Source: Arenimonas sp.
GTDB taxonomy: Bacteria > Pseudomonadota > Gammaproteobacteria > Xanthomonadales > Xanthomonadaceae
Direction: 5' to 3'
DNA length: 64,000 bases
Assembly: GCF_022842045.1 (NCBI RefSeq)
Contig: NZ_JALHQI010000001.1
Location: 9,774-73,773 of the forward strand
Shown here: one piece after another, positions 3,773 to 54,050 of the stretch
How positions within the stretch are numbered: the stretch's first letter is position 1
Layout of the letters: each line of letters starts with the position of its first letter
Position numbers and translations under genes: made by a program
The notes under the pieces: generated by a model
The model's input: the letters and a program-made list of their open reading frames with translations, nothing else
The model's database searches: none
Told to the model about the DNA's origin: nothing

Positions 3773-5086
3773 TCAGGTGCACGCCAGGGTTAGAACCGGT
3801 GCGAAACCGCCCCCGGGCGTGCGAAAGTTAGTGGTTTGCCCGTGATAGAGACGGGCCGCGAAGAACAGCACTTGCCCCTCATAGGCATAGCCGCGCAGAT
3901 CGACCTTCAGTGGAGTTGATTCGGGTCCTGTGTGTCGCACACTGGGTGGAATCAGGGCCTGCGCCACATAGTCCTGGTCGGCCATCTGCGCCCAAGTCTT
4001 GCGAGTGAGCTTGTCGCCCCGGTAGCTGGCGCGGCTGCCAAAGCCCCCGGCTGGCTTGAAGAACCATTCTTGTCGTGTAGCCCACAGTTGCTCGCGATTG
4101 TCCGCGCTCACCAGCACCGTTCGCGGGACCATCTCGGTGAGCAGCGTCTGCCGATCCGGCGACAGTCCTGCTTTGGCCAAGAATGTGCGGTCTCCCAACA
4201 AAGTCAGGTTGCGCTTGTCGGCCCACAGGGCGTGGGCGCGTGGATGGGGGCTCAGCGCCACCGCACCCGCGAGATACGCCAGGCGCAGGGCCTGCGAGGT
4301 GGGAGCCATCAACGCGAAGTCAGTGAGGCGGTTGTATACGCAGCCGATGCGCTCCTCGCCCAGGCGCAGCGCCCCGTCGACAAACCGCAGGTCGCCTGGG
4401 TCGCAGATCGCCGTCCGATAGCCCCGCGCTTCGAGCGCACGTTTGAACAGCATGAACTCAGCATAAAGATACTGCTGCTCTGGCGCGTGATCCACGATGG
4501 CCACCAGCGAGTTATCGGCGCGTCCGCCCTGCGCCTGCCATTCATCGAGCAGGACGTCGATGGCGGCCTGCTCGGCCTCGCTGGAAGCGGCCGGCGTGCT
4601 CAGCGACGGCAGGCAAAGACGCTGTGCCTTGGCCAAGAGGGCATTGAGCAGCAGGCCACCGGGATTGGTGTTGATCTCGATGAGCCGGGGTCCTGTGGGC
4701 CCCAGATGAAAGTCAAAGCCCAGCAGTCCGCCGGGCGAGCCAGGATCGTGCCGGGCGATGACGGGCGCCCAGGCCAACGCGGTTTCGACGAAGGCAGGGG
4801 TCGCGACGGCTGCGCTCAATGCCTGTACGGCCGCCTCCATCTGCCTAACAGTGTGCTCGGGCACGAAGATCGGCAGTGCGGCGAACAAGTGTGCGTGGGC
4901 GTCGGTCAAGCGACTGGGTGCGCCCTCTGACGCCAGCAGGCCGTTGACTTGCTCACGCACGGAATCCGGATCCACGGCGACGCAGAAACAATCGCGATGC
5001 AGGGCCTCGGCGGTCACGGTTTCCACGCAGGGCGCACCGCACCCCTCCAGGACGCGGCGAATGACGGGCTGGGTCACAACGGTCAC
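3773..5086 (-). CDS. Circularly permuted ATP-grasp (glutathionylspermidine-synthase-like) protein
   Basis: GFDFHL...RLIEINTN, VYNR, ADKRNL, FFKPAGGFGS, YVAQ and KVDLR...ARLY...TNFRTPGGG occur in the permuted ATP-grasp order. Confidence 0.65.
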   Translation of the reverse strand: MTVVTQPVIRRVLEGCGAPCVETVTAEALHRDCFCVAVDPDSVREQVNGLLASEGAPSRLTDAHAHLFAALPIFVPEHTVRQMEAAVQALSAAVATPAFVETALAWAPVIARHDPGSPGGLLGFDFHLGPTGPRLIEINTNPGGLLLNALLAKAQRLCLPSLSTPAASSEAEQAAIDVLLDEWQAQGGRADNSLVAIVDHAPEQQYLYAEFMLFKRALEARGYRTAICDPGDLRFVDGALRLGEERIGCVYNRLTDFALMAPTSQALRLAYLAGAVALSPHPRAHALWADKRNLTLLGDRTFLAKAGLSPDRQTLLTEMVPRTVLVSADNREQLWATRQEWFFKPAGGFGSRASYRGDKLTRKTWAQMADQDYVAQALIPPSVRHTGPESTPLKVDLRGYAYEGQVLFFAARLYHGQTTNFRTPGGGFAPVLTLACT

Positions 5087-5213: not shown

Positions 5214-5255
5214 TTGACGCAGGTCAAGCCGCCAAGACACCAGAACAGGTACCGT
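5214..5255 (+). promoter_or_regulatory. FNR/CRP-family-like palindrome TTGAC-N4-GTCAA with a -10 element (class II geometry)
   Basis: TTGACGCAGGTCAA at 5214-5227 and TACCGT at 5250-5255; the same layout recurs at 11904-11944. Confidence 0.6.
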
Positions 5256-5265
5256 GCCGCCCAGG

Positions 5266-5676
5266 ATGAAGACATTTCGCCGCCACCGCTTGCGTACCCG
5301 CCTTTCGCTTCTGGCGATGGTGGCGCTGCTGTGGTCGCAATTGGTCCTGGCTGCCCACCCGGCCTGTACCTTGGCCAGTATGGCAATGGACAATGCCCAC
5401 GACGTGTCGACAGGGCACGTCGACCCCGAGCCGGCCCCCTGCCATCCGTCGCCGTCCCCGGAGAGTTCTCCTGTTTGCGATACCCACTGCAGTCGCAGTG
5501 ACCTGAGTCCGGACGTGGCTCGCGTGCTGGCCGTTCCTGCCTTGGGCGCCTGCTCTGTCGTTCCGGTCATGAGCGTGCAGCGCCTGCCTCATGAGCCTGA
5601 TGCCGCCCAAACCCCGGGGCCCTTGCGCTCCTGGCATCGACCGACCGCCCACCCCGCCAGTCTCTTGTTGATTTGA
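5266..5676 (+). CDS. His/Cys-rich leader protein with N-terminal hydrophobic segment, ending HRPTAHPASLLLI
   Basis: Clear paralog at 11955-12377 shares HPAC, PCH, CxxHC and the C-terminal motif; lies directly upstream of the tolC-like gene. The start could be 5254 instead. Confidence 0.75.
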   Translation: MKTFRRHRLRTRLSLLAMVALLWSQLVLAAHPACTLASMAMDNAHDVSTGHVDPEPAPCHPSPSPESSPVCDTHCSRSDLSPDVARVLAVPALGACSVVPVMSVQRLPHEPDAAQTPGPLRSWHRPTAHPASLLLI

Positions 5677-5808
5677 TCCCGCACCGATGACCGGCCGGCG
5701 CCGCTGTGCGCCGTCGCCGGAGACATCGGTTCGGCCGCGTCCTGCGGCCGGTGCCGTCCGACCCACCCCTGCGGCCCCCGTGGCCAGCAGCCGTGCAAGG
5801 CGAACATC

Positions 5809-7116
5809 ATGGGATCCACGCTCACCTTTACCCCCCCGGGGCCCCGCCCTAACCACCCGCGCCGTGGCGCGCTCCGCGCTTTGGCCTTGGCGACACTGCT
5901 CGCGTTCGCGCCAGCGTCCTTCGCTGACACGCCGCTACCCGGAGCCGATGTCGAGTCCGTGCGGACCTGGTTGTTGGGCAACAATCCGGACCTGCAGGCG
6001 ATGCAGGCCGAGGCAGAAGCAGCGCAGGCACGCATTTACCCAGCTGGCGCCCTGCCCGACCCGATGGTCGGCATCTCATTGCAGGGGATCAACCCTGATC
6101 GCCCGAACTTACTGCCCGGTAACGTCGGGTCGGCGACCTACAGCGTGAAACAGCCTATCCCGCTATGGGGCAAGCGCGGGTTGGCCCGCGACGTGGCGCG
6201 ACAGCAGGCTGACGCCATCCAGCTGGAGCGGGAAGCCGCGGCGCTGAGGTTGCTGGCGCAGGCGGAGCAGGCCTATGTGCGCTACTGGCATGCCCGCGAG
6301 GGTGTGGCCGTGGTTGACCGGCTGATCGAACTGTTGGCGCAGATGGAAGAGGTTGCCCGGGTACGGTACGCCTTGGGCGTCGCGGCCCAGCAGGATTCCA
6401 TCCGCGCGCAGGTGGCCCGCACCGCGATGCAGCGCGAACGTATCGAGCGCCTGGCTATCCGTGAAGAGGCCGTGGCCATGTTGAACGCCACCCTCGGCCG
6501 GCCGGCCGACGCCCCCTTGGCCGAGCCGACCGGCGAGCCCGTGCTGGCCGTGCCGGCCGCTTCGCTCGGCGAAGCGCTCGGCCTGCTGGCGGAGGCCCGG
6601 CATCCTGCCTTGCGGGCCAGTACGGCACTGGCTGGGGCGGCCGATACGGCGGCGCAGCTCCAGCGCCGCCGCCGTTTGCCTGATCTCACGCTCGGCGTGG
6701 GCGTCATGCAGCGCGATGATCGCGTCGACGCCTACGAGGTGATGCTCGAAGTGGAGATCCCGCTACAGCGGCGTGCGCTGCGTGAGCGAGAGCGTGAGGC
6801 CCTGCTCATGAGGGACGCCGCAACGGCGCGTGCCGAGGCGATCGGCACCGAACTGCAGGGCCAACTGGGCCAGGCGTGGGCCCAGACGCGGAGTGCACGC
6901 GAGCAGCGCCGCCTGATCGAGCAGACATTGTTGCCGCAGGCGCAGGCCAACTTCGAATCCGCCCTCGCCAGCTACCGGGTCGGCGACGTCGACTTCGGCA
7001 CCTTGTTGGAGGCCTTGGAGGCCTGGCAAGGCGCTGATCTGTCGCGCGTGGATGTCCGTCGTAATGAACTCGTTGGCGCCGCTACGGTGCGCGCCCTGAT
7101 TGGGAGTGTCGAATGA
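5809..7116 (+). CDS. TolC/CusC-family outer membrane efflux protein
   Basis: Signal peptide, ALPDPMV, QPIPLWGKRGL, and ASYRVGDVDFGTLLEA repeats; first gene of an RND triplet. Confidence 0.85.
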   Translation: MGSTLTFTPPGPRPNHPRRGALRALALATLLAFAPASFADTPLPGADVESVRTWLLGNNPDLQAMQAEAEAAQARIYPAGALPDPMVGISLQGINPDRPNLLPGNVGSATYSVKQPIPLWGKRGLARDVARQQADAIQLEREAAALRLLAQAEQAYVRYWHAREGVAVVDRLIELLAQMEEVARVRYALGVAAQQDSIRAQVARTAMQRERIERLAIREEAVAMLNATLGRPADAPLAEPTGEPVLAVPAASLGEALGLLAEARHPALRASTALAGAADTAAQLQRRRRLPDLTLGVGVMQRDDRVDAYEVMLEVEIPLQRRALREREREALLMRDAATARAEAIGTELQGQLGQAWAQTRSAREQRRLIEQTLLPQAQANFESALASYRVGDVDFGTLLEALEAWQGADLSRVDVRRNELVGAATVRALIGSVE

Positions 7117-8456
7117 ATCGGTTCAATTGGAGTGTCCTGGCCCTCGCTGTTGGAGCGGCGCTGGCCCTGGGGTGGTGGTCGGGACGCGCCTCGGCGCCGG
7201 ACGCCGGGTCGCTGAACGTCCAGGAGACCTCGGCCGAATCGGGCGAGCGCAAAATCTTGTACTACCGCAACCCCATGGGTCTGCCCGACACCTCGCCCGT
7301 GCCCAAGAAGGACGCCATGGGCATGGACTACATCCCGGTATTTGAGGGCGGAGAGCCCGCGGCGGAGCCCGGAACGGTCGTGTTGCCGCCCGACAAGGTC
7401 CAGAAATTGGGCGTGCGCACCGAGGTGGCCGTTCGAGAGGCCTTGGTCGCCAACGTCCGTGCGAGCGCCTCGGTGCAGGTGGACGAGACCCGGCAATTTG
7501 TAGTCGCCCCGCGCTTCGAGGGCTGGATAGAGACCCTGTACGCGAACGAGACCGGCATGACGGTGCGGCGCGGCGAGCCGCTGATGGCGATCTACAGCCC
7601 GGAGCTGATCGCGGCCCAAGGCGAGTACGCGGTGGCCGACGCGGCGGCGAAACGTCTGGCCGACAGTGATCCGGCCAGCGCCGCCACCATGCGCCAGTTG
7701 CGCGACGCGGCGCAAACACGCCTGCGCAACTGGGAGGTGGCAGGGGCACATGTCGCTCGCCAGGGCCGCGAGGCGCGCCTGGTGCTGTCGGCACCCGCCG
7801 ATGCCGTTGTGGTCGACAAGCCTGTCGTCCAGGGTGACCGATTCACCCCGGGCCAGACCATCCTGCGGCTCGCCGACCTCTCCACGGTCTGGGTGATCGC
7901 CGAGGTGCCGACATCGGCGTCGGCCGATCTGGCGATCGGCAGCCAGGCCAGCTTCGAGACGCCCAGCCTGCCCGGACAGCGCTTCGAAGGCGAGGTGAGC
8001 TTCCTCCAGCCGGTCGTCAACCTGACCAGCCGCACGGTCGGCGTGCGAATCGAACTCCCGAACCCCGACGGGGTCCTGCGTCCCGGGCTCTTTGGTGATG
8101 TGGAACTGCAGGGCCGCGGCGGGGACCCGACCGTCGTGGTGCCGCGATCGTCCGTCATCGACTCCGGGACGCGCCAATTGGTCCTGGTGGAGACGGCCCC
8201 GGGCCGATTCGCGCCACGCGAGGTTCGCTTGGGTGCTCGGGCCGGTGATCGGGTCGCCGTGCTGTCGGGCGTCGAGGCCGGGGAGAAGGTCGTGGTCTCG
8301 GCGAACTTCCTGATCGATGCGGAGAGCAACCTGCGATCGGCCATGCAGGGCATGGAACATGGATCGCCTCCCCCGGCCGAGGATCACAGCGCCCATGAGG
8401 CGACGGCAGCACCACCGGCCGAAGACCCGCACGCCGCCCACACGGGAGGGCAGTGA
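7113..8456 (+). CDS. cusB: CusB-like periplasmic adaptor (MFP) of a heavy-metal RND pump
   Basis: KILYYRNPMGLPDTSPVPKKDAMGMDYIPV, lipoyl-like halves, C-terminal ANFLIDAESNL; ATGA overlap with the upstream gene. Confidence 0.88.
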   Translation: MNRFNWSVLALAVGAALALGWWSGRASAPDAGSLNVQETSAESGERKILYYRNPMGLPDTSPVPKKDAMGMDYIPVFEGGEPAAEPGTVVLPPDKVQKLGVRTEVAVREALVANVRASASVQVDETRQFVVAPRFEGWIETLYANETGMTVRRGEPLMAIYSPELIAAQGEYAVADAAAKRLADSDPASAATMRQLRDAAQTRLRNWEVAGAHVARQGREARLVLSAPADAVVVDKPVVQGDRFTPGQTILRLADLSTVWVIAEVPTSASADLAIGSQASFETPSLPGQRFEGEVSFLQPVVNLTSRTVGVRIELPNPDGVLRPGLFGDVELQGRGGDPTVVVPRSSVIDSGTRQLVLVETAPGRFAPREVRLGARAGDRVAVLSGVEAGEKVVVSANFLIDAESNLRSAMQGMEHGSPPPAEDHSAHEATAAPPAEDPHAAHTGGQ

Positions 8457-8457
8457 C

Positions 8458-11400
8458 ATGCTCGCCCGCCTGATCGAATGGTCGGTCCGCAATGTCTTCC
8501 TGGTCCTGGTGATGGCAATCGCCATCACCGCGGCGGGCATTTATGCCGTCGCCCGAACCCCGCTCGATGCCCTGCCCGATCTCTCCGATGTGCAGGTGAT
8601 CGTCTTCACTGAAGTGCCCGGCCAGGCGCCGCAGGTGGTCGAGGACCAGGTCACCTACCCGCTGACCACGGCCATGCTCGCGGTGCCCAAGTCCAAAGTC
8701 GTGCGCGGCTTCTCGTTCTTCGGGGCCTCGTTCGTCTACGTGATCTTTGAGGACGGCACCGACATCTACTGGGCACGCTCGCGCGTGCTTGAGTACCTGA
8801 ACTTTGCGTCCAAGAAGCTGCCCGAAGGCGTGACCCCGACGCTGGGTCCGGACGCCACGGGCGTGGGCTGGGTCTACCAATACGTGCTCGAGGGCGAACA
8901 ATGGTCACTCGACCAGCTACGCGCCATCCAGGACTGGTATGTGCGCTACCAGCTGACCAAGGCCCCGGGCGTCGCCGAAGTGGCCAGCGTCGGCGGCTTT
9001 GTTCGCCAGTACTCGGTCACGGTCGATCCCGGCCGGTTGCGCCAGTACGGCATTCCTTTGTCGAGAATCTCGGAGGTGATCGCCAGCAGCAATCGGGACG
9101 TCGGCGGGCGCGTGCTTGAAATGGCGGAAACGGAGTACATGATCCGCGGCCGCGGTTACCTGCGCGGCATTGAAGACATTGAGCAACTGGTCGTCAAGGC
9201 CGAGGACGGCACCCCGGTCCTCGTGGGCGACCTGGCCCGGGTCGAGCTGGTGCCCGATGAACGCCGTGGCGTCACCGAGCTCAACGGAGAGGGGGAGGTG
9301 GTCGGCGGTATCGCGGTGGCGCGCTATGGCGAGAACGCCCTGACGGTCATCGATGGGATCAAACAGAAAATCGCGGAGATCGGTCCTGGCCTGCCTGAAG
9401 GTGTCTCAATCCGCGCCGTCTACGATCGCTCCGACCTGATTCACCGGGCTATTGCGACCCTGCGCTGGACCCTGCTCGAAGAGAGCGTGATCGTGGCGCT
9501 TGTGTGCATCGTGTTCCTGTTCCATGTCCGCAGCGCGCTGGTCGCAATCATCATGCTGCCCGTGGGCGTGCTGATCGCCTTCCTGGCGATGCGCCTGCTG
9601 GGCATGAACTCGAACATCATGAGTCTGGGCGGCATTGCGATCGCCATAGGCGCGATGGTGGACGCCGCGATCGTGATGATCGAGAACGCGCACAAGCACA
9701 TCGAGCGCGACGATGGAACCAAACCGCGTATCCAGCTGATCATCGATGCCTGCCGCGAGGTCGGCCCCGCCCTGTTCTTCAGCCTGCTGATCATCACGGT
9801 GTCGTTCCTGCCGGTGTTTGCCCTGGAAGCGCAGGAAGGCCGGCTGTTCCATCCGCTGGCGTTCACAAAGACCTTTGCTATGGCGGGCGGCGCGCTGTTG
9901 TCGGTGACCCTGGTCCCGGTCCTGATGCTGCTGTTCGTGCGCGGCAAGATCCTGCCGGAAGCGAAGAATCCGGTGAACCGGTTCCTGATCGCGATCTACC
10001 GGCCGGTGATTGCCGTCGTTCTCAAGCACAAGGCGGCCACGCTGGTGCTGGCCCTGGTTGCCCTGCTCGGAACGGCCTGGCCTGCCTCGCGCCTGGGCAG
10101 CGAGTTCATGCCCACGCTCAACGAGGGCACCCTGCTGTACATGCCCGCGTCACTCCCGGGCATGTCGGTCACCAAGGCGGCGGAATTGCTCCAGCAGCAG
10201 GACCGGATCATCAAGACCTTCCCGGAAGTCGAGTCGGTCTTTGGCAAGGCCGGGCGCGCCCTGACGGCCACGGACCCGGCACCGCTGGAGATGTTCGAGA
10301 CCGTCATCAACCTTAAACCCGAAGACCAATGGCGCGAGGGCATGACCATCGACGCCCTTATCGCCGAGATGGACACGGCGCTGCAGTTCCCCGGCGTGGC
10401 CAATTCCTGGACCATGCCGATCAAGGCCCGCACGGACATGCTGGCCACCGGTATCCGCACGCCGATCGGCATCAAGGTGTTCGGAACGGACCTGGGGGAG
10501 ATGGAGCGACTGGCCAAGGAGATCGAGGCCGCAGTGCGGACCGTGCCGGGCACCACCAGCGCCTACGCCGAGCGTCTCACCGGCGGGTTCTACCTCGATA
10601 TCGAACCCGACCGTCGCCAGTTGGCGCGTTACAACTTGCCGGTCGGCGAGCTGCAAGACGTCATCGCGGCCGCGCTGGGTGGCGAGATGGTCACCACGAC
10701 GGTGGAAGGGCGTGAGCGCTTTGGCGTGATCGTGCGCTATCCCAGGGAATTGCGCGACAGTCCGGAAACCATTGCGCAGCAAGTGTTGGTCCCCACCATG
10801 GACGGCGCCCAGATTCCCTTGGGCGAGTTGGCGCACGTGACGGTTCGCAAGGGCGCGCCGTCGATCCGTACCGAGAACGCCCTGCTATCGGCCTACATCT
10901 ACGTCGACACCCGCGATCCGGACATGGGGGCCTACGTTCGCTCCGCACAGGAGGCCGTAGCCCAGTCGGTCACCTTCCCGCCGGGCTACTACGCCACCTG
11001 GAGCGGCCAGTACGAGTACATGCAGCGGGCGATCGCCAAGATGAAAATCGTGGTGCCGGTGACGCTGTCGCTGATCTTCCTGCTCTTGTACCTGAACTTC
11101 CGCCGGGTCACCGAGTCGCTGATCGTGATGCTGTCCGTGCCCTTTGCCTTGGTCGGCGGCGTGTGGCTGATGTGGGCGCTGGACTACAACCTCAGTGTCG
11201 CGGTTGCCGTTGGCTTCATTGCGCTGGCCGGTGTCGCGGCCGAAACCGGCGTGGTGATGCTGATCTACCTTGACCATGCCTTGGAAGCCCGCGCCAAAGA
11301 CCGGGAGGCGAAAGGCGAGGCGCTGACCTTGGCGGACATCACGGACGCCATCGTCGAGGGCGCCGTCGAACGCGTCCGACCCAAGATGATGACCGTGGTC

Positions 11401-11619
11401 GCCATTATGGCTGGCCTGCTGCCGATCATGTGGAGCACCGGCACCGGTTCGGAAGTCATGCGGCGCATTGCCGCGCCGATGGTCGGCGGGATGGTGTCGT
11501 CCACGATCCTGACGCTGGTCGTGATCCCGGTGATCTACGCGCTGGTCAAGCGCCGGGAGCTGCTGGGCCCCCGGGCGCAGGCCGTCCCGGTCGCCGGATT
11601 GTCGGAGGCGGCGCGATGA
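8458..11619 (+). CDS. cusA: CusA/CzcA-family heavy-metal efflux RND transporter (Cu/Ag type)
   Basis: LDALPDLSDVQVIV, GPDATGVGWVYQY, GAMVDAAIVMIEN, ERVRPKMMT; Met positions in EFMPTLNEG...APLEMFET...TDMLATG. Confidence 0.92.
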   Translation: MLARLIEWSVRNVFLVLVMAIAITAAGIYAVARTPLDALPDLSDVQVIVFTEVPGQAPQVVEDQVTYPLTTAMLAVPKSKVVRGFSFFGASFVYVIFEDGTDIYWARSRVLEYLNFASKKLPEGVTPTLGPDATGVGWVYQYVLEGEQWSLDQLRAIQDWYVRYQLTKAPGVAEVASVGGFVRQYSVTVDPGRLRQYGIPLSRISEVIASSNRDVGGRVLEMAETEYMIRGRGYLRGIEDIEQLVVKAEDGTPVLVGDLARVELVPDERRGVTELNGEGEVVGGIAVARYGENALTVIDGIKQKIAEIGPGLPEGVSIRAVYDRSDLIHRAIATLRWTLLEESVIVALVCIVFLFHVRSALVAIIMLPVGVLIAFLAMRLLGMNSNIMSLGGIAIAIGAMVDAAIVMIENAHKHIERDDGTKPRIQLIIDACREVGPALFFSLLIITVSFLPVFALEAQEGRLFHPLAFTKTFAMAGGALLSVTLVPVLMLLFVRGKILPEAKNPVNRFLIAIYRPVIAVVLKHKAATLVLALVALLGTAWPASRLGSEFMPTLNEGTLLYMPASLPGMSVTKAAELLQQQDRIIKTFPEVESVFGKAGRALTATDPAPLEMFETVINLKPEDQWREGMTIDALIAEMDTALQFPGVANSWTMPIKARTDMLATGIRTPIGIKVFGTDLGEMERLAKEIEAAVRTVPGTTSAYAERLTGGFYLDIEPDRRQLARYNLPVGELQDVIAAALGGEMVTTTVEGRERFGVIVRYPRELRDSPETIAQQVLVPTMDGAQIPLGELAHVTVRKGAPSIRTENALLSAYIYVDTRDPDMGAYVRSAQEAVAQSVTFPPGYYATWSGQYEYMQRAIAKMKIVVPVTLSLIFLLLYLNFRRVTESLIVMLSVPFALVGGVWLMWALDYNLSVAVAVGFIALAGVAAETGVVMLIYLDHALEARAKDREAKGEALTLADITDAIVEGAVERVRPKMMTVVAIMAGLLPIMWSTGTGSEVMRRIAAPMVGGMVSSTILTLVVIPVIYALVKRRELLGPRAQAVPVAGLSEAAR

Positions 11620-11637
11620 TCGGCCCCCTCCCGTCCA

Positions 11638-11668
11638 TTGACCTGCGTGCGGCACCCAGCTTTAGGGT
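11638..11668 (+). promoter_or_regulatory. MerR-type promoter (19-bp spacer), paralog of the 12565 site
   Basis: TTGACC-TGCGTGCGGCACCCAGCTT-TAGGGT; 25 of 31 positions identical to 12565-12595. Confidence 0.6.
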
Positions 11669-11903
11669 CGACAGACCGCGCTCGTGCCGCGCGGTGAACC
11701 GACGCCGAGTCCGCGCCGAGGCTAGGGGGCGGCCGTACGGCCCGGGCCTGTCGCCCGGGCCGACGCGCCGCTCCCGGAGCCTGCGGTCCGCTTGCCTCCC
11801 GGTCCTACCTCAGGAGTTCGCCTTGACCCATCACGACTCACATCCACTTCCGCCGTCGCGGACACTCGAGCCAAGGCATGCGCGGACCTTGCGGGCTCGT
11901 CAA

Positions 11904-11944
11904 TTGACGTAGGTCAAAGCCGGTCCCTAGGAGAGGTGTAACGT
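11904..11944 (+). promoter_or_regulatory. FNR/CRP-family-like palindrome with a -10 element
   Basis: TTGACGTAGGTCAA at 11904-11917 and TAACGT at 11939-11944. Confidence 0.6.
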
Positions 11945-11954
11945 GCTGAGTAGG

Positions 11955-12377
11955 ATGAACCGCTTCCGCCGCCACCGCTGGCGTACTCCCATTTCGCTGC
12001 TGGCGATGCTGGCGCTGGTATGGGCACAACTGGTTCTGGCGGGCCATCCGGCGTGCATGGGCTCGGCGATGGCTTCGATGCCCGCCCATGCCGAACATGC
12101 CGATCATGGCCAGTCCGCGGGAGCCGATCCGGCCCCACCGTGCCATGGCACTCCGCTCAATGGGGACACGCCCCTGTGCGCGTCGCACTGCAGTCAAGGC
12201 GACCTGAGCAAGGAGGCGCCGCGACTGGAGTCGGTACCGACCCTGGGTCCTGTGCCAATCATGTCGGTCGTGGCCGTGCAGCGACTGCCTGATGCGGCGG
12301 GCCGGGCGGTGGCAGCGCGTCCTCGTGTCGCCTGGCACCGACCTACCCCCCATCCAGCCAGCCTCCTGCTGATCTGA
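11955..12377 (+). CDS. Second His/Cys-rich leader protein ending HRPTPHPASLLLI
   Basis: Paralog of 5266-5676 (MNRFRRHR vs MKTFRRHR; GHPAC, PCHG, CASHC). The start could be 11943 instead. Confidence 0.75.
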   Translation: MNRFRRHRWRTPISLLAMLALVWAQLVLAGHPACMGSAMASMPAHAEHADHGQSAGADPAPPCHGTPLNGDTPLCASHCSQGDLSKEAPRLESVPTLGPVPIMSVVAVQRLPDAAGRAVAARPRVAWHRPTPHPASLLLI

Positions 12378-12392
12378 TCCCGCGCCGATGCT

Positions 12393-12420
12393 CGACCGGC
12401 GCCCGTAAGGGCGCCGGTCG
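12393..12420 (+). promoter_or_regulatory. Perfect 12-bp GC hairpin just after the leader ORF stop (possible attenuator or pause element)
   Basis: CGACCGGCGCCC-GTAA-GGGCGCCGGTCG with no U-tract; a weaker equivalent lies at 5696-5713. Confidence 0.5.
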
Positions 12421-12564
12421 CCTCGGTGCAGCCGCCGTGTGCGCGGCCTGCCCCGCCGACTCCTACCGCAACGCCGTCAGGCGGCGGTACGCGCGAGGCC
12501 AAGACCATGAGATTTCCCCTTCCACGAAGAGCTGTCGCCATCAGCGTTAGCGCTCCGGCGCGCC

Positions 12565-12595
12565 TTGACCTGTGTCCGACACTCAGGTTTACGGT
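12565..12595 (+). promoter_or_regulatory. MerR-type promoter/operator upstream of the merR-family gene
   Basis: TTGACC, 19-bp spacer with dyad (CCTGTGTC...GACACTCAGG), then TACGGT. Confidence 0.75.
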
Positions 12596-12622: not shown

Positions 12623-13138
12623 ATGACAGCCCATCTGCACAAGACCGAGCCGCCGATGACGGTGCGCCGCCTGGCGAAATCGGGTGGCGTGACGGTGCAC
12701 GTCGTGCGCAACTACCTGCGCCGCGGCCTGCTGCGGGCGGCCAGGCACACGGAGGCCGGCTACCAACTGTTCTCGACGGCGGAGCTGCATCGCCTGCACT
12801 TCATTCGCACGGCGCAGCGCTTGGGCTTCACTCTGACCGAAATCGAGGAAATCCTGCGGCGCAGTCGCCAGCGCCGGAGTCCGTGTCCGCTCGTGCGCGA
12901 CATCATCAGCCGTCGGCTGGCGGAAACCCGTGACCAGCTCGAGCAGCTCCTGGCGCTGCAAACGCGAATGGCGCAGGCCGTGGCCCAGTGGTCCCGCCTG
13001 CCCGACGCCGTGCCGACGGGTAATGACGTCTGCGCACTGATCGAAGCCGTCGCGGCCAGCGAGGCCGCGGTCGTCCCCAAATCCACCCCGCGGCGCCTTC
13101 TGGGGGGTCGCAACGCTTCAGAGGAGACGGCCTCATGA
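12623..13138 (+). CDS. MerR-family metal-responsive regulator
   Basis: N-terminal HTH MTVRRLAKSGGVTVHVVRNY, FIRTAQRLGFTLTEI, and Cys in SPCP and VCALIE. Confidence 0.88.
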   Translation: MTAHLHKTEPPMTVRRLAKSGGVTVHVVRNYLRRGLLRAARHTEAGYQLFSTAELHRLHFIRTAQRLGFTLTEIEEILRRSRQRRSPCPLVRDIISRRLAETRDQLEQLLALQTRMAQAVAQWSRLPDAVPTGNDVCALIEAVAASEAAVVPKSTPRRLLGGRNASEETAS

Positions 13139-14007: not shown

Positions 14008-14657
14008 ACCCCATTGATTCCGGCTACGGGCTGTGGGCGCTGGCCGTGCTCAACGCTGCGTTTTTCATCTTCTTCGCCTGGAGCTTCTACACCCCGCTCA
14101 CGACCCGGGACTGGCGCAGCTTCGGCTTGTATTCCGCGTTCGTCGTCGCGCTGTTCGCGGAGATGTACGGCTTCCCGCTGGGCCTGTTTCTGCTGTCGGG
14201 CTGGCTCTCGTCGCGCTTCCCGGAGGTCAACTGGCTCAGCCACGACGCCGGTCACGTGTTTGAGATGATGTTTGGTTGGCGGAGCAATCCGCACTTCGGT
14301 CCCTTCCACATCCTGAGCTTCGCTTTGATCGGCGGCGGCTTCTGGTTGCTCGCCCGCGCCTGGCCGGTGCTCTATCACGCGCAGCGTCGCGGTGAGCTGG
14401 CGCAGACCGGTCCCTACGCCCGCCTTCGGCATCCGCAGTACGCCGGGTTTGCGCTAATCATGACCGGCTTCCTGGTACAGTGGCCGACACTAATCACCCT
14501 AATGCTGTACCCGGTGATGCTCATCAGCTATGTGCGATTGGCGATCAATGAGGAGCGTGAGACGCGGGCACGTTTTGGTGCCGTCTACGAGCGCTACATG
14601 GCGGCGGTGCCGAGGTTCCTTCCGCGCCGTCGCCGGACGCAGGCGGTGGCCTCATGA
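14004..14657 (+). CDS. Isoprenylcysteine carboxyl methyltransferase-family membrane protein
   Basis: [46 protein letters not shown]. Confidence 0.8.
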
Positions 14658-17062
14658 AGGCCGATCCGAACACGACGGCAGTGAGAACCTGGCCGATCGG
14701 CGACATGCTGACCGAAGGCTGCGCCCGGACCCTGGCCGCCACGATCCGCGAACTGCCGGGCGTTGAGGCCGCGGATGCCAACTTCGCGACGGGCATGTTG
14801 CAGGTGCGCTACCTGCGCAGCGCGACCGAGCCCACCCGCATAGCGTCGGCTATACGCGCCTGTGGCTTCGCGTGTCGTGCCCCGTCGGCCGAGGCCAGCG
14901 CCCCGGCAGTTCCCCCCGCTGCCGGTCCCGCGCCCGACGACCATGCCGGGCACGGCAGCGGCCACGGGCACACAAAGCCCGCGGTCGCCGCGCCCCAGGC
15001 CAAGGTCGATCACGCGGGCCATGGTCCAGAGGCCTCCGCCAAGACCGGCTCAGACCCGCACGAGGGCATGCACCACGGAGGCGATCTGCACGCAGCAGCG
15101 GCGGACATGCGGCGGCGTTTCGTGATCGCCCTGGTGTTCTCGATCCCACTGTTCATCTGGTCACCGATGGGATTGATGAGCGCGCCCCCGACGCCGTTCG
15201 GCCTGACCGAGAACGTCTGGTTGTGGCTGTTGGCCAGCGGCGCGGTGATCTACCCGGGCTGGCCGTTCTTCACGGCGGCGATCCGCTCGCTGCGCCGCGG
15301 TGTGCTGGACATGGCGGTGCTGGTGCTGCTCAGCGTCGGCACCGGCTACGGCTTCAGCCTCGGGGCGACGTTCCTGTTCGACGGGCCCAATTTCTACGAG
15401 GCCTCCTCGGTCCTCATGACCTTCATCCTGCTGGGCCACTGGCTGGAAATGCGGGCCCGCGCCGGCGCCTCGGACGCGATGAAGGCCTTGCTAAAGCTCT
15501 CGCCGCCGCGGGCGATCGTGCGCCGGGACAACGTCGATGTCGAAATCGCCACCGACGACGTGCAGGTGGGTGACGTGGTCGTCGTGCGGCCGGGTGCCAA
15601 GGTGCCGGTCGACGGCGAGGTCCTCGAGGGCCAGTCCCAGGTGGACGAATCCATGCTCACCGGCGAATCGATGCCGGTGAAGAAGGTGCCGGGCTCGCTC
15701 GTGGTCGGCGGCACGATCAATCGCAGCGGCGCCTTCACCTACCGCGCCACCAAGGTCGGCGCCGACACCGCGCTGGCCCAGATCATCCAACTCGTCCAGG
15801 AGGCGCAGAACTCCAAGGCCCCGGCCCAGTTGCTGGCCGACCGCGCCTCGCAGTGGCTGGTGCTGGCGGCGATCGTGATCGGCGTGCTGACCTTCGCCGT
15901 TTGGTTCTGGTGGCTCGGCCAGCCCCTGCTCTTCGCGCTCACCCTGACCATCACCGTCTTCGTGATCGCCTGCCCCGACGCGCTCGGCCTGGCGACACCC
16001 ATGGCGATCATGATCGGCACCGGCATGGGCGCCCGGCACGGCATTCTGTTCAAGCACGCCGAGGCCGTCGAACAATGCGCGCGGCTGGACGTGGTGATCT
16101 TCGACAAGACCGGCACGTTGACGGTGGGCCAGCCCGACGTCGTGCAGGTGGTATCGGCCCCGGGGTGGGACGAGGTAACCCTCATCGATGTGGCGGCCGC
16201 CGTGGAAACCCACTCCGAACACCCGCTGGCCCAGGCGATCCTCAAGCACGCGGGCCCGGTCCAGGAGAGGGCGACGGACTACACCAACATCGACGGCCAG
16301 GGCGCCATGGGGCGCGTGACGGGTCGCTGGGTGCACTTGGGCAACCGGCTGCTGATGACCGCGCAAGGGGTGGCGCTGGACGCCCTGGACGCACAGGCCG
16401 AGGCGCTCAAGGGCGGCGGGCGCACCGTGATCTACGTCGCCGTGGATCGCAAGCTCGCCGGCGTGATCGCCATTGCCGATGCCATCCGCCCCACATCCCG
16501 GGCCACGATCCAGGAGCTTCACCGGCGCAAGGTAAGGGTGGCGATGATAACCGGCGACAACCGGCCCACGGCCGAGCGCGTGGCCGCGGACCTGGGCATC
16601 GACATCGTGCTGGCGGACGTACTGCCCGGCGAAAAGGCCGCCGAGGTCAAGAAGCTGCAGGCCCAGGGCCTGAAAGTCGGCATGGTGGGCGATGGCGTCA
16701 ACGATGCCCCGGCGCTCACGCAGGCCGAGGTCGGCTTTGCGATCGGTGCCGGCACCGACGTCGCGATCGACAGCGCCGACATAGTGCTGATGCGCAGCGA
16801 CCCCTATGACGTCGTGCGGGCGATCACGATCGCCCGCGGGACGCTGCGGAAAATGCACCAGAACCTGGCCTGGGCCGTGGGCTACAACGTCCTGGCCTTT
16901 CCGCTGGCCGCTGGCGTCCTCTTCCCGTTCGTTCTCTCGCCCGAAGTCGCCGCGCTGTCGATGTCCGGCAGTTCGGTGATCGTGGCTGTCAATGCGCTGT
17001 TGCTCAAGCGCCTACCCTTGGCGACGGTTTCGAGCGCCGCCGAGGATTCCCCCGCTGTTTAA
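14654..17062 (+). CDS. Copper-type P1B ATPase with a CPD intramembrane motif
   Basis: [36 protein letters not shown] and MSGSS; His-rich linker; degenerate N-terminal HMA domain. Confidence 0.9.
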
Positions 17063-35399: not shown

Positions 35400-35604
35400 G
35401 GGGTTTCTCGGCACGCCGGATGCGGCGGCGGCCTGGCATCGGCTGCGCTGTCGGCTCCGGGCGACCGTGGAGCCCCCTGAGAGCCCTCACGCCCGCGATG
35501 TCTTTGAAGCTATCCGGACTCTCATGTCCTCCTGAACGCGACGCGGCGAGGAGAGGGGAATGAAATTGTGTAACCCCAGGACCGTCAGGTACGCTGCCAC
35601 GGCA

Positions 35605-35994
35605 ATGCGTACTTCCCCTCCCCTGCTGATGGCCCGACTTCGCGCATCCGTGCGCGTGGCCGCGTGGGTGCTGTTGGTGTTCCTGCTCAAGGTGGGCATG
35701 GTCGCGGCCTGCACCGTGGATGAGATGCAGGACAGCACTTGGGGAGTGACCAGCACCCAGGTGCCGGCGACGGATGCCGCGCTTCCGGCCGAGGCATCGG
35801 AGGCGGATGAACCATCGTCGCTCCTCGCGCATGCGGCGGGCGGCTGCTTGGATTGCCATTGTCACCATGCGGCGGCCTTGCCGCCCATGACCGTCACCCT
35901 GGCCGGACCGCCGGCCATGCCCCGCGTCCTACCCCCGCCCGTCGCCATGCCGATCGGCGCCGCACGCAACGAGCTTCGCCCGCCCATTCTCTGA
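35605..35994 (+). CDS. CopL/CzcI-like His/Cys leader protein ending RPPIL
   Basis: Hydrophobic N-terminus, CLDCHCHH, C-terminal ELRPPIL; start uncertain (35560, 35605 or 35629). Confidence 0.7.
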   Translation: MRTSPPLLMARLRASVRVAAWVLLVFLLKVGMVAACTVDEMQDSTWGVTSTQVPATDAALPAEASEADEPSSLLAHAAGGCLDCHCHHAAALPPMTVTLAGPPAMPRVLPPPVAMPIGAARNELRPPIL

Positions 35995-53594: not shown

Positions 53595-54050
53595 ATGAAG
53601 TACTCCCGATTCGGGCTGATGATCCTGGTATCCACTGTTGTGATGTTTGGTTTGATGTACCTCAACAATTACGCGCTTGACCACGTCTATTTCAGCGAAA
53701 CACGCTTCTACATGGCGTTGGTCATGGGCGCGAGCATGGCGGCGGTGATGCTGCTCTTCATGCTCAAGATGTACACCCGCAAAGGCGCCAACTGGACCAT
53801 CCTGGCATCGGCGGTATTGGTGTTCTCCGGCTCGCTGTGGCTGGTCCGCAGCCAGTCCACCATTGAAGACGTTGCCTGGATGAAGGCGATGATCCCGCAT
53901 CACTCGATCGCCATTCTTACCAGCTCGCGCGCCGAAATCAGCGACCCCCGGGTCCGAGACCTGGCCGACCGCATCATCAAGGCGCAGGAGAGCGAGATTG
54001 CCGAGATGAAGCAGTTGATCCAGGAGCTGGAGGCACAGCCCGAGCGGTGA
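53595..54050 (+). CDS. DUF305-family protein
   Basis: WMKAMIPHHSIAILTS, IIKAQESEIAEM; N-terminal TM helices. Confidence 0.8.
   Translation: MKYSRFGLMILVSTVVMFGLMYLNNYALDHVYFSETRFYMALVMGASMAAVMLLFMLKMYTRKGANWTILASAVLVFSGSLWLVRSQSTIEDVAWMKAMIPHHSIAILTSSRAEISDPRVRDLADRIIKAQESEIAEMKQLIQELEAQPER

Follow-up and report, generated by a model that had tools for sequence, protein, structure and literature searches.

Copper export pumps are usually described under the control of copper sensors such as CusRS, CueR, and CopRS. The present analysis deals with two promoters in 64,000 nucleotides of Arenimonas sp. DNA (contig NZ_JALHQI010000001.1, positions 9,774 to 73,773; this 64-kb stretch is hereafter called the window), each of which carries a palindrome resembling the binding site of FNR and precedes the gene of a small Cys/His protein, hereafter called the leader. 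The first leader gene (copy 1) heads a Cus-type copper RND operon, and its paralog (copy 2) stands before a copper ATPase operon. Like E. coli cusCFBA, the copy 1 operon encodes an RND pump of the CusA type together with its CusB and CusC partners. It differs in being devoid of cusF and in beginning with the 136-residue leader. Moreover, E. coli cusCFBA is controlled by CusRS and the effect of O2 on it is indirect, via periplasmic Cu(I), whereas the window operon has a putative O2-sensor box at its promoter. Enteric Cus systems matter mainly without O2, a condition that idles the multicopper oxidase (PMC8966772), which bears out, for the enterics, the statement of an earlier sequence-only reading of this DNA that Cus-type efflux is important chiefly at low oxygen. 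Literature searches returned no paper that describes direct FNR control of a cus or copper-RND operon, or an FNR box directly at one.

The two promoters resemble the class II promoters of E. coli FNR, which binds at -41.5, and those with the Pseudomonas ANR boxes: a 14-bp TTGA-N6-TCAA site lies 21-22 nt before a TAnnnT hexamer, a -35 element is missing, the FNR of the host bears both the Cys cluster and the E--SR helix, and the box is also present at hemN and ccoN. They differ from these in their targets, namely a copper RND operon of the Cus type and the leader gene ahead of a copper ATPase operon, in their predicted (near-)leaderless mRNAs, and in their half-sites, TTGAC/GTCAA and not TTGAT/ATCAA. 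FNR-family control of a copper transporter has a precedent, as FixK/FNR controls ccoNOQP-ccoGHIS (fixGHIS), including the copper P1B-ATPase CcoI/FixI. In both cases an FNR-family regulator active at low oxygen would stand over a copper P1B-ATPase, but CcoI/FixI supplies copper for cbb3 assembly, whereas the window holds a resistance-island CusCBA and a CopA-type exporter with a MerR regulator. Finally, the loci recall those of the DUF2946 copper-sensing leaders, CutF of Rhodobacter capsulatus and CruR of Bordetella pertussis, in which a small exported protein also comes first in a copper operon. As in the window family, a Cys motif is placed ~50 residues ahead of a conserved C-terminal tail that contains Pro, and a structured intergenic region precedes the effector gene (PMC9426467; bioRxiv 10.1101/2025.02.05.636593); the passages searched mention no FNR-type promoter for cutF or cruR. 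The likeness is in layout only: the window family falls outside DUF2946, and its tail is WHRPTxHPAxLLLI instead of RAPP or poly-Pro.

Direct reading of the window confirms perfect TTGAC-N4-GTCAA palindromes at both positions given by the sequence-only reading, together with the spacings that it had claimed: TAnnnT follows the boxes after 22 and 21 nt, and the leader ATG (5266-5268 in copy 1, 11955-11957 in copy 2) lies 10 nt past each hexamer (Table 1). Transcription would then start near 5262-5263 in copy 1, which centres box 1 at about -41.5 to -42.5, and near 11951-11952 in copy 2. The exact palindrome has two matches in the window and none in 100 dinucleotide-preserving shuffles. Three further sites appear when one mismatch is allowed, one of which, at 53652, sits within a DUF305 coding sequence and was rejected as a chance match. 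Both boxes contain the perfect FNR/ANR core TTGA-N6-TCAA, with C/G at palindrome position 5 as at the host's own hemN and ccoN. Pairwise alignment of the two upstream regions reports conservation of the palindrome, the -10 region, and AGGATGAA, while the DNA 5' of the box is unalignable between the two copies, although their coding regions are ~70% identical. No usable -35 element is found 17 nt 5' of either -10 hexamer (AGCCGC and AAAGCC), which implies that an activator is needed, as expected for an activator-dependent promoter. Judged by their sequence, the two predicted promoters display every feature of class II FNR promoters. At copy 2 (11900-11917) and at three homologous loci (L021, L025, and L031), a third half-site touches the box (TCAA-TTGAC-N4-GTCAA) and creates an overlapping 10-bp palindrome, GTCAATTGAC, which may simply be the A/T-rich flank preferred by FNR.

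The geometry is conserved across the Lysobacterales. The comparison rests on 81 loci (the two window copies and 79 out of 80 retrieved), which represent 62 distinct upstream sequences. A box with at most one mismatch ends 33-39 nt before the ATG in 53 of these 62 regions, and 49 of the 53 have TAnnnT 21-23 nt past the box (exactly 22 nt in 38). The 22 and 21 nt of the window promoters fit this spacing, in agreement with the class II arrangement that had been proposed for them. Fifteen sequences have 6 nt from the -10 hexamer to the ATG, and 32 have 9-11 nt; the 6-nt distance implies a truly leaderless mRNA in those 15 and places the box centre at -41.5, counted from the A of the start codon. 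The start codon is ATG in every homolog where it is readable, which corresponds to a requirement of leaderless translation. Leaderless mRNAs make up 14% of the total in Xanthomonas, the model genus of the family (PMC3300014), and the mRNA of czcI2, a small gene of a czc cluster in Cupriavidus metallidurans, is also leaderless (PMC7563307). A box-anchored information profile shows no signal beyond the box with its AA flank and the T-A-n-n-n-T, and the signal of the latter does not depend on the way the sequences were selected.

The box accompanies the leader regardless of whether the upstream gene encodes an ATPase, an RND protein, or an ATP-grasp protein. The downstream partner is cusCBA at most loci, with leader-cusCBA order and spacing kept, and merR-DUF5676(-ATPase) in one clade. 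A maximum-likelihood tree of the leaders places the box in every deep clade (56 of 64 distinct proteins), and it is perfect in all members of the MerR-linked clade. The two window leaders belong to different well-supported clades, and the box is therefore older than their split.

The host assembly is a draft of 3.08 Mb with 70% G+C, and its closest relatives are Arenimonas. Genome-wide, TTGAY-N4-RTCAA returns 12 sites against 1.1 expected from base composition. Beyond the leader promoters, seven of the 12 precede hemN, ccoN (encoding subunit I of the cbb3 oxidase), a tandem-Usp gene (usp), a gene for a class II aldolase, one for a ThiF/MoeB-like protein, and, as a pair of sites, moaA. For the remaining three (C93:171, C93:1528, and on C119), the downstream genes are not typical FNR targets or were not identified. 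The hemN, ccoN, usp, and moaA sites are followed 21-23 nt later by a -10-like hexamer (GATAAT at ccoN), and at hemN and the aldolase gene the ATG comes just 7 nt after the -10 hexamer; such geometry indicates that class II, leaderless FNR promoters are normal in this genome. The two moaA boxes are 37 bp apart (C87:7896 and C87:7933) and may form a tandem or divergent control region.

The predicted regulon extends to the four relatives checked, Thermomonas sp. S9, Lysobacter daejeonensis, Pseudoxanthomonas koreensis, and Tahibacter aquaticus. All four possess FNR orthologs of 67-72% identity and a perfect box at hemN, and all except T. aquaticus have one at ccoN. The hemN promoters of Thermomonas, L. 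daejeonensis, and P. koreensis exhibit TAnnnT 22-23 nt past the box and an ATG 6-7 nt further on. Seven Stenotrophomonas entries from different species (L072-L078) share an identical sequence upstream of the leader-cusCBA module. Stenotrophomonas sp. PUT21, the only one of the seven examined, has no FNR box at hemN, no ccoN was found in it, and it is devoid of such an FNR ortholog, encoding instead an FnrL-like protein with C-X2-C-X7-C and METVSR. This suggests that the module has recently spread horizontally into hosts with another FNR set.

Six proteins of the CRP/FNR family, above the Pfam cut-off, are encoded in the host genome. Two of them bear the FNR signature, comprising an N-terminal C-X2-C-X5-C, a central Cys, and an ETVSR recognition helix. 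These paralogs are located at C2:90454-92700, where the fnr gene lies directly downstream of hemN in an arrangement resembling Pseudomonas hemN-anr, and at C95:2412-2633. With the NCBIfam Fnr model the score is 195 bits, short of the 228 set as the subfamily cut-off. The other four proteins are devoid of E--SR, one being Clp/CRP-like and three of the REGVTE/RSAVTI types. None of the six genes is on the island. The proposal that FNR is the regulator of the palindrome thus gains in silico support from the consensus core, the hemN, ccoN, usp, and moaA sites, the two Fe-S FNRs, and the family-wide geometry. We consider it likely that both palindromes are binding sites for the host FNR/ANR-type [4Fe-4S] O2 sensor, in the class II position ~41.5 bp upstream of the start, and the bacteria probably switch on copper export at low oxygen.

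Three other assignments of the palindrome were considered and rejected. As a MerR-type operator, it would use TTGACG as a -35 element, which needs a 30-nt spacer, and its dyad is only 14 bp long. The CusR/CopR box is a TGAC-N6-GTCA dyad, as opposed to the N4 spacing of the window palindromes. A role of box 1 in driving the divergent ATP-grasp gene (3773-5086, minus strand) finds no minus-strand TAnnnT at the class II distance, and elsewhere the box accompanies the leader with or without an ATP-grasp gene; a distant class I effect on this gene is still conceivable.

Table 1. Features of the two copper loci, numbered from the first nucleotide of the window.
Feature	Position	Strand	Remarks
FNR-type box 1, TTGACGCAGGTCAA	5214..5227	.	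Perfect palindrome; conserved at homologous loci
-10 hexamer TACCGT	5250..5255	+	22 nt 3' of box 1
Leader paralog 1, 136 residues, exported or membrane-anchored Cys/His protein, ends WHRPTAHPASLLLI	5266..5676	+	ATG start conserved in the family
Outer-membrane factor (CusC-like)	5809..7116	+	Pfam OEP
Membrane-fusion protein (CusB-like)	7113..8456	+	Pfam HlyD_D23, CusB barrel-sandwich domain
CusA-type heavy-metal RND pump	8458..11619	+	TIGR00914 CusA/CzcA, 1211 bits
FNR-type box 2, TTGACGTAGGTCAA	11904..11917	.	Perfect palindrome
-10 hexamer TAACGT	11939..11944	+	21 nt 3' of box 2
Leader paralog 2, 140 residues from ATG	11955..12377	+	
MerR-type promoter, predicted	12565..12595	+	TTGACC, 19-nt spacer with imperfect dyad, TACGGT; read from the sequence
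MerR-family metal regulator	12623..13138	+	Pfam MerR_1 and MerR-DNA-bind; likely start ATG 12623
Copper-translocating P1B-type ATPase	14654..17062	+	TIGR01511, 605 bits; Pfam E1-E2_ATPase and HMA

Downstream of leader 1, the OEP and HlyD_D23 domains and the CusA-type signature A-IG-MVDAAIVMIEN in transmembrane segment 4 (TM4) of the pump identify a Cus-type RND operon with predicted Cu/Ag specificity. The TM4 motif reads AIGAMVDAAIVMIEN, which we take to mark the Cu/Ag (CusA) class. The listed open reading frame (ORF) of the pump begins at 8317, and the ATG at 8458 (MLARLIEW...) is the likelier start. Neither a sigma-70-like promoter nor an intrinsic T-run terminator was found in the 132-nt gap between leader 1 and cusC, and read-through from the leader promoter into cusCBA is predicted on this ground. 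A cusRS pair is not among the scanned ORFs (3-23929), although no search aimed at cusRS near the operon was made. A third, distant leader-like gene (35560-35994, start 35560 or 35605) with a CLDCHCHH motif and the tail RPPIL lies before a second RND operon, the pump of which has the TM4 motif GIGMMVDGAVVMVEN; an FNR-like box was looked for upstream of this gene and none was found.

In copy 2, leader 2 is followed by genes for a MerR-family regulator, a DUF5676 protein, a DUF2933 protein, an ICMT-like methyltransferase, and the copper P1B-ATPase. No sigma-70-like promoter or T-run terminator was detected around leader 2. The regulator matches NCBIfam models under their equivalog cut-offs, and it has a Cys at the SPCP position and a single Cys in the C-terminal loop, by which it is not a canonical CueR. 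The dyad of the predicted MerR-type promoter is ACCTGTGTC..CACTCAGGT, 27 nt 5' of the merR ATG, and this promoter would give the ATPase operon a metal-responsive start of its own. The predicted FNR-type promoter 2 would certainly serve leader 2, but only possibly the copper ATPase. The earlier claim that both promoters would put copper efflux under oxygen/redox control is supported in silico, with this qualification for copy 2.

The leader proteins of ~136-140 residues possess a basic, hydrophobic N-terminus, H-x2-C, C-H, and C-x2-H-C motifs, and the invariant tail WHRPTxHPAxLLLI. Neither of the two window leaders returns a match with Pfam or NCBIfam models, and the DUF2946 model PF11162 matches none of 20 family members at E <= 1; the family displays C-x3-C (CDTHC) and HRPTxHP, as compared with the CXXC and RAPP of DUF2946. 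The family is restricted to the Lysobacterales, among them Arenimonas, Lysobacter, Luteimonas, Thermomonas, Stenotrophomonas, Pseudoxanthomonas, and Tahibacter, and a plasmid search with the leader protein as query gave no match. Immediately 3' of both leader stop codons, behind a common stretch TGATCCCGCRCCGATG, the transcripts are predicted to form stable stem-loops (regions 5677-5760 and 12378-12430). These are strong, G+C-rich, and devoid of a T-run, e.g. GGCGCCC-GTAA-GGGCGCC at 12398-12415, and the fold after leader 2 has a z of -3.5. They could be an attenuator or an arrest-controlled element. Since the promoters contain no second conserved element, copper sensing must sit elsewhere, and by analogy the copper response probably resides in the leader peptide and in the RNA that follows it.

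A mechanism can be proposed on these grounds. When O2 is scarce, holo-FNR dimers would occupy the box and recruit RNA polymerase to the TAnnnT promoters that are devoid of a -35 element, and the mRNAs would start 0-4 nt before the AUG of the small exported Cys/His leader protein. In copy 1, transcription would run on into cusCBA; in copy 2, the second leader would be made, and read-through into merR-copA may occur beside the operon's own MerR-type promoter. By analogy with CutF and CruR, copper would most likely act at a stage later than initiation, by way of the leader peptide and of the stem-loops that follow its stop codon. In its full form, which we advance only tentatively, this amounts to a two-input gate across the Lysobacterales: an FNR-activated leaderless promoter would permit transcription in hypoxia only, and the unclassified Cys/His leader with the tail WHRPTxHPAxLLLI would sense periplasmic copper co-translationally and decide cusCBA expression. 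If true, such a gate would stand in for the CusRS/CueR paradigm of RND pump control in these bacteria.

Several observations weigh against FNR activation of near-leaderless copper mRNAs. The half-sites TTGAC/GTCAA differ from the TTGAT/ATCAA of E. coli FNR, a variant that is also present at the host's own hemN and ccoN. The 10-nt gap between hexamer and ATG would leave 3-4 nt of mRNA leader, so that the transcripts would not be strictly leaderless. In copy 2, an in-frame GTG at 11943 is preceded, at a distance of 6 nt, by GGAGAGG, and the two would suit an mRNA that starts further upstream and carries a leader. In a close relative the position of this GTG is taken by a stop codon in frame, which makes the ATG the conserved start of leader 2. 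Around 10% of the leader family is without the box, though the genomes concerned keep FNR. Lastly, the post-leader stem-loops might stop transcripts before cusC or merR. This last point leads to the explanation that FNR does activate, but that the transcript mainly serves the leader: the stem-loops or Rho-dependent termination would gate cusCBA and merR-copA, O2 control would be only permissive, and the MerR-type promoter would dominate the ATPase operon. The stable structures behind both stops and TGATCCCGCRCCGATG, the z value of the copy 2 fold, and the separate promoter before merR are in line with it, as are the mechanisms of CruR (Rho-dependent termination) and CutF (a stem-loop masking the ribosome-binding site) (PMC9426467; bioRxiv 10.1101/2025.02.05.636593). 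However, the stretch from leader 1 to cusC holds no T-run intrinsic terminator or sigma-70-like promoter, and the conserved order and spacing of leader and cusCBA at most loci argue for a single operon. We regard this explanation as rather unlikely, and it is more a refinement of FNR-driven efflux than a competitor to it.

The palindrome could also be read by another regulator, either another member of the CRP/FNR family or an unrelated dimeric factor responding to copper, nitric oxide (NO), or redox. The genome does encode four further CRP-family proteins, and in other bacteria NO sensors of the DNR/NNR type also prefer TTGAC-N4-GTCAA. Nevertheless, the E--SR helix that reads TTGA is confined to the two Fe-S FNR paralogs, the same motif is found at hemN and ccoN in the host and its relatives, and the island encodes no regulator of this family, which makes a different reader improbable. 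It is still less probable that the palindrome is a repressor or roadblock site, or that the true promoter lies elsewhere and the -41.5 geometry is coincidental. The start sites are predicted only, and the copy 2 GGAGAGG before the in-frame GTG would agree with such a promoter, but relatives preserve neither this Shine-Dalgarno-like run nor the GTG. Moreover, the 21-23 nt between box and TAnnnT are kept in 49 of 53 diverged promoters, in which TAnnnT is the sole other conserved element, and the missing -35 hexamer calls for an activator.

Activation by FNR would thus bring together a known promoter class and a wiring to copper efflux that is apparently both conserved and unreported. An oxygen-sensor site and a -10 hexamer are the only conserved elements of these promoters, kept across the order Lysobacterales. 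If FNR acts as proposed, the cells would ready copper efflux within their low-oxygen programme. In the absence of O2, Cu(I) predominates and multicopper oxidases stop. The arrangement would also fit the chemistry of the FNR regulon, in which HemN, MoaA, and FNR itself rely on copper-sensitive Fe-S clusters. With its predicted leaderless mRNA, exported leader peptide, and efflux operon, the promoter offers a directly testable case of such coupling.

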